A stretch of 40,311 bases of DNA, from the NCBI GenBank assembly GCA_023717585.1, contig JAMQPJ010000216.1, forward strand, positions 1 to 40,311, read 5' to 3'. Positions 38,578 to 40,311 of this stretch are shown in pieces. The notes under the pieces were generated by a model that saw nothing but the letters and a program-made list of their open reading frames with translations, did no database searches and had not been told where the DNA came from. Source of the DNA: Thermoanaerobaculia bacterium. Its GTDB lineage: Bacteria; Acidobacteriota; Thermoanaerobaculia; UBA5066. The position numbers and the translations under genes were made by a program. The first letter of the stretch is position 1, and every line of letters starts with the position of its first letter.

Positions 38578-38670
38578 CGCCGGTTTGATACCGGCGACTA
38601 AACGTCGGTTAGTGGTCAACGAAGTGACACAATTCGGCAGCAACTATCCAGCTTGTGGTTGTTTTGAGCT

Positions 38671-38680
38671 CCAAATTTGG
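38671..38680. promoter_or_regulatory. perfect 10-bp palindrome CCAAATTTGG, ~90 bp upstream of the sigma-54 -24 element (candidate activator site)
   Basis: Read directly. Flanked by a CTCCAAA direct repeat (38669 and 38693). Confidence 0.3.
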
Positions 38681-38706
38681 GTCGATTTTTGACTCCAAAC
38701 ACTTCT

Positions 38707-38718
38707 AGTACATGTACT
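38707..38718. promoter_or_regulatory. perfect 12-bp palindrome AGTACATGTACT, ~45 bp upstream of the -24 element
   Basis: Read directly; self-complementary over all 12 nt. Confidence 0.3.
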
Positions 38719-38759
38719 TAGAATGTAACATGGCAGTCACTCCCATATTCCATGAGTAT

Positions 38760-38775
38760 TGGCATTACTGTTGCT
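38760..38775 (+). promoter_or_regulatory. sigma-54 (-24/-12) promoter TGGCAT-N5-TTGCT
   Basis: TGGCATTACTGTTGCT. The GG (38761-62) and GC (38773-74) elements have exactly the consensus spacing of TGGCAC-N5-TTGCW. It lies ~117 nt upstream of the first DUF4402-like gene, inside an AT-rich island. Confidence 0.6.
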
Positions 38776-38891
38776 AATCACTGTGTCAGTGAAACATAAC
38801 TGACACACCTCACTGGAGCCGGCAAGGCGGCCTAGAGGTATCGACAGAAAAAAGAAGAAAAAGAAGAGCAAAAGAGAAAAAGGAGAATCCC

Positions 38892-39416
38892 GTGAAGAAG
38901 ACACTGATCCCCACCGCTCTGGCCTTCGTCCTCGTCGTGGTCGGCACCCTTTCGGCGGGCAGTGCGTTCGCGCAGGCGAACACCGACACGGAGACCGCCA
39001 ACGCGAGCGCGCGCGTCGTAGCCGCCATCGCGCTCACCAAGACCGCCGACCTGAACTTCGGCGACGTCGTGGCGAGCGCCGCGGCGGGCACTGTCGTGAT
39101 GTCGCCCGCGGGCGCCCGCAGCGCCACTCTGGGCGCGACCCTCGGAAACGCGAACGGCGCAGCCGCGGCAGCGTTTGGCGTGACCGGCGTCGCCGCGGCC
39201 ACGTACGCCATTTCACTCCCCGGCGCTGCGATCTCGATCTCGGACGGTGGTGCCAACACGATGAGCGTGGGCACGTTCACCGGCAGCAAAGCCACCGGCA
39301 CCCTGTCGGGCGCCGGCGCGGACAACTTCACCGTCGGCGCGACGCTGAGCGTCGGCGCAAACCAGGTCGCCGGCAGCTACACCGGCACCTTCAACGTCTC
39401 GGTCAACTACAACTGA
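38892..39416 (+). CDS. secreted DUF4402-like protein (putative fimbrial/surface beta-sandwich subunit), copy 1
   Basis: Signal peptide MKKTLIPTALAFVLVVVGTLSAGSAFA. Cys-free Ala/Gly/Thr-rich body with LNFGDV near the N-terminus and GSYTGTFNVSVNYN at the C-terminus, the pattern I associate with DUF4402. AAGGAG RBS, GTG start. Confidence 0.75.
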   Translation: MKKTLIPTALAFVLVVVGTLSAGSAFAQANTDTETANASARVVAAIALTKTADLNFGDVVASAAAGTVVMSPAGARSATLGATLGNANGAAAAAFGVTGVAAATYAISLPGAAISISDGGANTMSVGTFTGSKATGTLSGAGADNFTVGATLSVGANQVAGSYTGTFNVSVNYN

Positions 39417-39484
39417 ACCGGGAGCGGCGCGAGAGGCTCGCCCTTCCGGGTCCGCCCTTCGGGCGCCTTCCGGGCCCGGCCTTC

Positions 39485-39506
39485 GGGGCGCCCTCCGGGG
39501 CGCCCC
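39485..39506 (+). terminator. GC hairpin GGGGCGCC-ctccgg-GGCGCCCC followed by TCTGGTTTG (possible partial terminator/attenuator after copy 1)
   Basis: 8-bp perfect stem read directly, with only a weak U-tract. Preceded by several degenerate CGCCCTTCGGG mini-hairpin units. Confidence 0.35.
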
Positions 39507-39621
39507 TCTGGTTTGATGGAAGGAAAGACTACGAGCCGCGGGCTGCGAGTCCGCCGGGCGCGACCAGGATGGCAGAATCCCCGGACGGCCATCTGTCCGG
39601 GAACGGTGAACGAGGAGAGAG

Positions 39622-40098
39622 ATGATGAGAGGCTCCGGACGGGCGTCCCTGGTCGCGGCGACGGTCCTGTTCGTGGCCGCCGCGACTCCGTCCGCAGAGG
39701 CCGCGATCAGCCTCACGAAGATCACCGACCTGGCCTTCGGAGACCTCACGGCCGGTGCGTCGGCCGGCACCGTGAGGATCGCGCCGAACGGTAACCGGAC
39801 GAGGACGGGAGGCGTGACCCTGCTCGCAAGCACGTTCGACAACGCGAGCTTCACGGTCGCGACGCCGAGCGGCAATCGCGGCTACACGATCATCCTGCCG
39901 GGCTCGGCGACGCTGACTTCCGGCGGGGGGTTCACGATGACGGTGGACACCTTCAGGAGCAATCCGAGCGGCAGCGGCACGACGAATGCGGCAACCCGCA
40001 CCCAGACGCTCAACGTCGGCGCGACGCTTCAGGTGGGCGCAAACCAGAAACCGGGGACGTACATGGGCACGTTCACGGTGACGGTGAACCAGAATTGA
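39622..40098 (+). CDS. secreted DUF4402-like protein, copy 2
   Basis: Signal peptide ...ATVLFVAAATPSAEA. ISLTKITDLAFGDL and C-terminal GTYMGTFTVTVNQN parallel copy 1. GGAGAGAG RBS. Confidence 0.75.
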   Translation: MMRGSGRASLVAATVLFVAAATPSAEAAISLTKITDLAFGDLTAGASAGTVRIAPNGNRTRTGGVTLLASTFDNASFTVATPSGNRGYTIILPGSATLTSGGGFTMTVDTFRSNPSGSGTTNAATRTQTLNVGATLQVGANQKPGTYMGTFTVTVNQN

Positions 40099-40311
40099 TT
40101 TCCGCCCGCCCCCGCTCCGCCGCGCTCGCCGCGTTCCTGGCCCTCGTCGCCGCTCCGGGTGCCGTGAGCAACTCCGTTTTCACGCCTTCGGGCGAGCGAA
40201 AGAGCGCCGCTTCGCTGACCGTTGCCGCGAACGCACGCGTCGTCGGAGCCCTCGCCATTCACAAGGTGCAGGAGCTGGATTTTGGAGACGTGCGCGTGCC
40301 GGGGGGCGCCG
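40095..40311 (+). CDS. DUF4402-like protein, copy 3 (N-terminal part, runs off window end)
   Basis: Absent from the track. TTG at 40095 overlaps the upstream stop (TTGA). It reads ISARPRSAALAAFLALVAAPGAVS...ANARVVGALAIHKVQELDFGDVRVPGGA, repeating the signal peptide + (I/L)xxxxxLxFGD pattern of copies 1-2. Start codon uncertain. Confidence 0.5.
   Translation, partial: MISARPRSAALAAFLALVAAPGAVSNSVFTPSGERKSAASLTVAANARVVGALAIHKVQELDFGDVRVPGGA

Follow-up and report, generated by a model that had tools for sequence, protein, structure and literature searches.

No adhesins of Gram-negative pathogens are better understood than chaperone-usher fibres, yet these fibres have barely been studied in environmental phyla. 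Among these systems, the archaic (sigma) class has been found in a wide range of phyla (PMC9452303). Its comparators for the present case are Csu of Acinetobacter baumannii and CupE of Pseudomonas aeruginosa (PMC9452303, PMC10104325, PMC4654587), and the csuA/B-A-B-C-D-E operon is arranged in the order major subunit, two minor subunits, chaperone, usher, last subunit (PMC9452303). Here we describe an operon that begins near the end of a 40,311-nucleotide (nt) contig of a Thermoanaerobaculia bacterium from the Acidobacteriota (GenBank assembly GCA_023717585.1, contig JAMQPJ010000216.1; this whole stretch is referred to as the window). The operon consists of six genes, encoding in turn three DUF4402 proteins (copies 1, 2 and 3), a PapD-like chaperone, an usher and a fourth DUF4402 protein (copy 4), and the window carries its promoter-proximal half. 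Its gene order is the same as that of csuA/B-A-B-C-D-E, and it lies outside the Proteobacteria. We consider it very probable that this is a chaperone-usher fibre operon. All four of its subunits are members of DUF4402 (PF14352), a Pfam family of unknown function. No paper mentioning DUF4402 or PF14352 was found in the literature searched, nor one combining chaperone-usher, Acidobacteria and 'domain of unknown function', nor one on this system. The features of the operon in the window are the following (aa, amino acids; E, expectation value).

38760..38775, forward strand: candidate sigma-54 promoter, TGGCAT-N5-TTGCT (-24/-12), 117 nt upstream of the start of copy 1
38892..39416, forward strand: DUF4402 copy 1, 174 aa, GTG start with AGGAG 8 nt upstream; PF14352 E 1.7e-27, profile positions 2-129 of 129, 97.1 bits
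39417..39621, forward strand: spacer between copies 1 and 2, 205 nt, its first ~95 nt highly conserved, with three possible stem-loops
39485-39506, forward strand: terminator-like hairpin GGGGCGCCC-TCCG-GGGCGCCCC followed by TCTGGTTTGA, the last of the three stem-loops, found by scan
39622..40098, forward strand: DUF4402 copy 2, 158 aa; PF14352 E 4e-34, profile positions 1-128 of 129, 118.5 bits
40095..40311, continuing in bases 3-346 of the reverse complement of contig C79, forward strand: DUF4402 copy 3, TTG start; the first 72 of its 186 codons lie in the window

The window corresponds to the entire contig C678 of a genome bin that comprises 687 contigs and is 87.7% complete with 6.4% contamination, and it ends within copy 3. 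Contig C79, which is 5197 nt long, carries the two further matches that a genome-wide search for DUF4402 yielded; one of them abuts the contig end and is without the first 20 profile positions. When reverse-complemented, C79 encodes the last 114 residues of a DUF4402 protein, a 320-aa open reading frame (ORF), an 899-aa ORF, a 161-aa DUF4402 protein and the C-terminus of a convergent sigma-54 activator. No exact overlap of at least 11 nt exists between the window end and C79; with a 2-nt overlap, the two contigs join in frame and yield a 186-aa copy 3, which aligns without gaps with the 186-aa orthologues of loci L006 and L008 (85% identity) and whose junction residues, VPGGAGSVTV, are identical to those of one orthologue. 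On the long contigs that carry the orthologous loci L006, L007 and L008, an identical seven-gene layout runs uninterrupted: DUF4402 proteins of 167-202 aa (as called), 157 aa and 186 aa, the last with a 4-nt overlap, are followed by proteins of 317-324 aa and 891-899 aa, a 163-aa DUF4402 protein and a convergent gene with the domains REC-Sigma54_activat-HTH_8. Copy 2 in these loci is 75-76% identical to that of the window, and the upstream genes of the window are also present in L008. Because of the in-frame join, the gapless copy 3 and the intact orthologous operons, C79 can, on the evidence of the sequences, be taken as the continuation of the window contig. The first-pass annotation of the window had reported three consecutive same-strand genes at 38892-40311, and the ORFs were found as described. 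Its array of at least three DUF4402 genes stands for these three and has to be extended to four, the fourth lying after the usher gene. Its expectation that any assembly genes would lie beyond position 40311, and that chaperone or usher genes should be looked for downstream, was borne out by C79, which encodes the PapD-like chaperone, the usher-fold protein and the fourth DUF4402 protein, and the three contiguous orthologous operons back the join.

All four copies exceed the Pfam gathering threshold of DUF4402 (25.2 bits). The assignment proposed in the first-pass annotation thus holds for copies 1 and 2 (E 1.7e-27 and 4e-34) and also for the joined copy 3 (E 9.7e-21, profile positions 1-128 of 129, 75.2 bits); its 72-aa fragment alone gives no Pfam DUF4402 match. 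Copy 4, with 161 aa, is a single DUF4402 domain (34.3 bits). A search of NCBIfam, which covered the chaperone, the usher, copies 1, 2 and 4 and the 72 aa of copy 3 that lie in the window, gave nothing meaningful. The N-proximal L.FGD motif noted earlier reads LNFGD, LAFGD and LDFGD in copies 1, 2 and 3, respectively, and the C-terminal G.Y.GTF.V.VN(Y/Q)N is present in copy 1 as GSYTGTFNVSVNYN and in copy 2 as GTYMGTFTVTVNQN. The TTGA by which copies 2 and 3 had been said to overlap is likewise there, its counterpart in the orthologues being ATGA, and the 205-nt length given for the spacer after copy 1 is correct (39417-39621). The description of the bodies as Cys-free does not apply to full-length copy 3, which has two Cys (ECAQVSC) beyond the window. 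Judged by eye, the signal peptides of the DUF4402 copies have a basic n-region, a hydrophobic core and an AxA-type site. Type V pili, the lipoprotein pili of Bacteroidota, were considered and rejected, as these signal peptides are without a lipobox Cys.

The 320-aa protein gives a PapD_N match of its own at E 0.0037, which is below threshold; among its 45 aligned relatives, 44 reach E<=0.01 against PapD_N, with 1.5e-6 as the lowest value. In a family-versus-family comparison with hhalign, its family aligned with a canonical set of nine PapD_N chaperones from genomes of the same class at 96.1% probability (E 3.2e-9) over 167 columns extending from domain 1 into domain 2, and the aligned part starts at the mature N-terminus, so that signal peptides are excluded from it. 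The motif PTR(I/V)VFEG, with which domain 1 opens, aligns with position 8 of the PapD_N profile, which would correspond to the subunit-anchoring Arg8 of PapD and FimC. In addition, several sources name homologues of this protein 'fimbria/pilus periplasmic chaperone' or 'PapD'. A search of the Protein Data Bank (PDB) sequences with the chaperone profile returned no chaperone, and comparisons of profiles with single sequences, namely the chaperone and the SCPU fragment of contig C77 (see below), were too weak to be of use, so that family alignments were used instead. On this evidence the 320-aa protein can be described as a remote PapD-like chaperone, encoded beside the usher.

The usher identity of the 899-aa protein comes from its predicted structure. 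Pfam Usher (PF00577) has no match in this protein or in the entire genome, and it is matched by one of 54 relatives, at E 0.008. The Pfam matches of the protein itself are weak ones to CarboxypepD_reg and SdrD_B at the C-terminus, its homologues are named 'hypothetical' or 'carboxypeptidase-like regulatory domain-containing protein', and a search of PDB sequences with the family profile found no usher. The AlphaFold model, based on 54 homologues, has a mean predicted local distance difference test score (pLDDT) of 86.1 and a predicted template modelling score of 0.69. In a Foldseek search of the PDB with this model, the top 18 matches are all FimD or PapC, the best being 3rfz_B (E 5.1e-28, ~900 columns). 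The barrel-only entries 2vqi and 3ohn show a target-normalised template modelling (TM) score of 0.53-0.54 to the model, and unrelated barrels such as LptD match about 20 orders of magnitude more weakly than ushers. The canonical plan of PapC and FimD is a barrel of 24 strands in which the plug follows strand 6. The strands assigned by DSSP to the model comprise an N-terminal domain (~60-200), 6 long strands, a 6-strand insert (334-400), 18 long strands and two C-terminal sandwiches (~700-899); in the model, this list amounts to a 24-strand barrel with the plug between strands 6 and 7. By its predicted fold, the 899-aa protein is an outer-membrane usher.

The family to which this usher belongs has 1,696 clusters (50% identity) at E<=1e-30 and 3,130 at E<=1e-10, and some of its members have N-terminal SPOR or LysM peptidoglycan-binding domains, which fits a protein with periplasmic parts. 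One homologue, P0276 (1238 aa), has an N-terminal HisKA and HATPase_c; it could be a genuine fusion or the result of a gene call that took in an adjacent histidine kinase, and it hints at two-component control of such loci elsewhere. The usher ORF as called overlaps the chaperone gene by 41 nt (bases 1308-1348 of the C79 reverse complement; L009, 3850-3890), an overlap that is equally long in L008 and 17 nt long in L006. The usher may in truth start further downstream, and an 849-aa version, P0241, exists.

Most DUF4402 proteins have an extension of 12-18 residues between the signal peptide and the Pfam domain, in which small and hydrophobic residues (A/T/V) alternate, e.g., ATATATATIVTP. The Pfam model begins after this extension and therefore omits the putative donor strand. 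Within the operon, the extension is present in copies 1 (ANASARVVAA), 3 and 4; it is absent from copy 2 and all of its close orthologues, mature copy 2 beginning with AISLTK directly at the domain. In operons with one or two pilins (G059, G022 and Chitinophaga), all of the pilins keep the extension, and each of the two multi-copy operons examined (the other being G028) has exactly one extension-less copy. Such a pattern is what a donor-strand model predicts, and in this small sample the prediction holds. In known systems, only the distal subunit, which is incorporated first, can do without a donor strand (FimH, PapG, CsuE). Thus, copy 2, which has no extension, is best read as a tip cap and may be regarded as the candidate for this position, while copy 1, whose gene is the first of the operon and is followed by a terminator-like hairpin, is the candidate major fibre subunit. 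The AlphaFold model of copy 2 (pLDDT 87.8) gives weak fold matches in the PDB (best E 5.9e-3, TM 0.47), almost all of which are chaperone-usher pilins: self-complemented FimA, Caf1, CfaB, HdaB, CS17, FimG, SafD and PapH. PDB sequence searches with copy 2 and with its family profile found no pilin.

From what is established here, i.e., the gene content, gene order and conservation, the family matches, the usher fold of a confident model and the chaperone homology, a scheme can be inferred for polymerisation, the role of each copy, regulation and the surface location of the product. All six proteins would be exported by the Sec system, and in the periplasm the chaperone would cap each subunit's open hydrophobic groove. 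The chaperone strand would be displaced at the usher by the N-terminal extension of the subunit that arrives next (donor-strand exchange), the plug would move, and the growing fibre would be threaded through the 24-strand barrel. Copy 2, being without an N-terminal extension, would be confined to the distal end as a tip cap, copy 1 would form the shaft, and copies 3 and 4 would be minor subunits that act as adaptors or terminators. The hairpin after copy 1 might raise the ratio of major to minor subunits through partial termination or through stabilisation of the transcript. The suggestion made in the first-pass annotation, that the array resembles the major and minor subunits of a fimbrial or surface-fibre system, is supported by the PapD-like chaperone, the usher fold (E 5.1e-28 in Foldseek) and the fourth DUF4402 protein.

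In comparison with the archaic class, the likeness of this operon is not limited to gene order. A relationship is detectable between its chaperone family and the PapD_N chaperones encoded beside SCPU pilins in the same bacterial class, and in a profile alignment the FG motif and the C-terminal strand Y-x-x-T-V-x-V-x-(Y/F) of DUF4402 line up with SCPU. However, the subunits are DUF4402 and not SCPU (PF05229), none of the four copies having an SCPU match; the Cys pair of the aligned SCPU pilins is absent from copies 1 and 2; the last subunit, copy 4, is a single domain of 161 aa, in contrast to a two-domain, CsuE-like adhesin; and the usher escapes Pfam Usher. The profile-profile comparison of DUF4402 with twelve SCPU pilins gave E 1.4e-6 (90%) with the signal peptides included and 0.011, in the same register, with the signal peptides trimmed. 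Homology between DUF4402 and SCPU is not claimed, because the first score came largely from aligned signal peptides and E fell to 0.011 on trimming. With regard to the classical type 1 (FimD/FimC/FimA-H) and P (PapC/PapD) pili, the usher model matches FimD and PapC over the full length, including the plug and the terminal domains, FimA-type pilins are the nearest match of the copy 2 model, and a possible stem-loop follows the candidate major subunit gene. A stem-loop stands likewise after the major subunit gene in the pap and fim operons. On the other hand, the usher is only 12-16% identical to FimD and PapC and has no Pfam or PDB sequence match. The locus thus lacks three defining features, namely SCPU subunits and a Pfam Usher, both of which are defined by sequence, and a two-domain tip adhesin. 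It very probably works like a chaperone-usher fibre system, as a strongly diverged variant of that kind and not as a member of the Csu/SCPU family.

A separate canonical archaic-type locus is present in the same genome on contig C77 (L010, 1-1700), with an SCPU pilin (PF05229, E 3e-16), which is the only SCPU match in the genome, and a PapD_N chaperone (E 2e-13); it continues with the N-terminal part of a SPOR-domain protein, which is cut off by the contig end. Since this locus and the DUF4402 operon are both present, two different chaperone-usher-type systems coexist in this genome. In the same-genus genomes that have the C77-type chaperone (G019 and G144), no match to the DUF4402-type usher family was found.

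A full-length usher homologue is found in ~15 of 151 genomes of the class, in a patchy pattern. In all five of these genomes that were checked, every DUF4402 match lies within ~3 kb of the usher homologue, with one to five copies per locus. In the Bacteroidota species Chitinophaga agri, the gene after DUF4402 encodes a clear chaperone homologue (E 4e-53). This locus (L011, CP048113, 8001-16516) has a protein of >2,600 aa with no recorded Pfam match in place of the usher of ~900 aa. Locus L012, from an assembly labelled Bacillota (GCA_050261135.1), has two DUF4402 genes in tandem, with neither a chaperone nor an usher gene within 8 kb. The Bacillota are a phylum of Gram-positive bacteria; the assembly may be mislabelled or wrongly binned, or DUF4402 subunits may be used differently there. 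The linkage of DUF4402 with chaperone and usher genes is frequent and not universal.

Several observations weigh against a chaperone-usher fibre operon and have to be set beside those in its favour. The usher is identified from a predicted structure, with no Pfam Usher or PDB sequence match and a full-length TM score of 0.42-0.54, and the pilin fold match of copy 2 is weak (best E 5.9e-3, TM 0.47). The similarity between DUF4402 and SCPU dropped from E 1.4e-6 to 0.011 when the signal peptides were removed. The join between C678 and C79 is based on synteny and the reading frame and not on reads. The hairpin after copy 1 is without covariation, compensatory changes in the spacer stems being found in 0 of 34 pairs across 3 sequences, and its U-tract in the window's own copy is poor. 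Finally, as L012 illustrates, some DUF4402 genes elsewhere have no neighbouring chaperone or usher.

Some of these points also bear on alternative explanations. The same machinery might build, in place of discrete pili, a polyadhesin that is thin and flexible or a layer resembling a capsule or coat; products of this kind are known from Caf1-type fibres and from the Mcu spore-coat system of Myxococcus. The highest identities (18-19%) among the PDB fold matches of copy 2 are indeed to Caf1 in the Caf1M:Caf1:Caf1 mini-fibre (3dos), and the subunits are small, Ala/Gly/Thr-rich and single-domain, with no two-domain adhesin in the operon. Nonetheless, four differentiated subunits, one of which is extension-less, suggest an ordered tip-and-shaft fibre over a homopolymer, and we regard a layer of this kind as unlikely, although it deserves more credit than the remaining two alternatives. 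According to one of these, the DUF4402 proteins are secreted or periplasmic monomers that serve, for example, in binding or as a coat, and the chaperone-like and barrel proteins export them without polymerisation, which would suit both the DUF4402 genes that stand apart from any chaperone or usher gene (L012) and the weak pilin fold match of copy 2. It is difficult to reconcile with the conservation of the alternating N-terminal extension and of the C-terminal beta-strand motif, and with an extension that is kept in single-pilin operons and missing from one copy per multi-copy operon, as donor-strand polymerisation predicts; moreover, the known ushers FimD and PapC are, as is established for the family, platforms for fibre assembly. 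Export of monomers is thus quite improbable.

The other alternative starts from the assembly itself: the bin is fragmented and contaminated (687 contigs, 87.7% complete, 6.4% contamination) and the contigs share merely a 2-nt overlap, so that C79 might come from elsewhere in the genome or from another organism in the bin. The window would then hold an isolated array of three paralogues without assembly genes. Against this, the join is in frame and its 186-aa product aligns without gaps with 186-aa orthologues, with a matching junction (VPGGAGSVTV); the whole operon is unbroken on three orthologous contigs, one of which has the window's own upstream genes; and C79 terminates in the same convergent sigma-54 activator as the orthologues. 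An isolated array is accordingly the least credible of the explanations, with hardly any probability left to it.

A chaperone-usher fibre operon of this type, if it is what the locus represents, would assign a function to DUF4402 and would supply annotation pipelines with an usher family and a chaperone family that they now lack. Standard annotation (Pfam, NCBIfam) misses the usher, though its family has thousands of metagenome members. The mechanism is familiar, but the family is large, unannotated and unstudied. The operon would also offer a minimal, Cys-free, single-domain subunit set for donor-strand studies and for the engineering of protein fibres, and in this genome the product is likely a regulated adhesion or biofilm organelle. 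Rather tentatively, and with the odds somewhat against so broad a claim, it can be proposed that the DUF4402 loci form a separate, large and unstudied chaperone-usher lineage alongside the classical, alternative and archaic ones, with usher and chaperone families of its own, a single-domain cap without a donor strand in place of a two-domain adhesin and, in this genus, a sigma-54 two-component switch.

As regards such a switch, the pattern TGGCAY-N5-TTGCW has a single match in the 40-kb window, with 0.01 expected by chance, and the element is kept at the same place in the upstream regions of L006 and L008, where the flanks diverge. The genome has rpoN, on contig C241, and the gene convergent to copy 4 encodes an NtrC-type response regulator (REC-Sigma54_activat-HTH_8). 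Within this genus, a sigma-54 promoter and the convergent NtrC-type regulator together appear to drive the operon. A strict -24/-12 site was found in none of three more distant loci, and beside the G028 operon, the one distant locus with its neighbours scanned, there is no activator gene; a one-mismatch site upstream of that operon is within chance. Since the distant loci are without the strict element and G028 is without the activator, sigma-54 control would be specific to the clade.

A hairpin of 8-9 bp of G+C with a T-rich tail follows copy 1 in all three orthologues, the tail being TTTTT in L008, and the folding energy of the whole spacer is ~1.7 standard deviations below that of shuffled sequences. 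An attenuator reading of the hairpin is plausible, being compatible with the conserved GC-rich stem and the T-rich tail.

Further conserved sequences surround the sigma-54 element. Conserved TGACAC/GTGTCA motifs occur around it (window 38600-38815), with GAAGTGACACAATT ~135 nt upstream and the inverted pair TGTGTCAGTGAAACA...TGACACAC immediately after the -12 element, and all of these are kept in L006 and L008. The motifs could be sites for the neighbouring HTH_8 activator or could form a leader hairpin.

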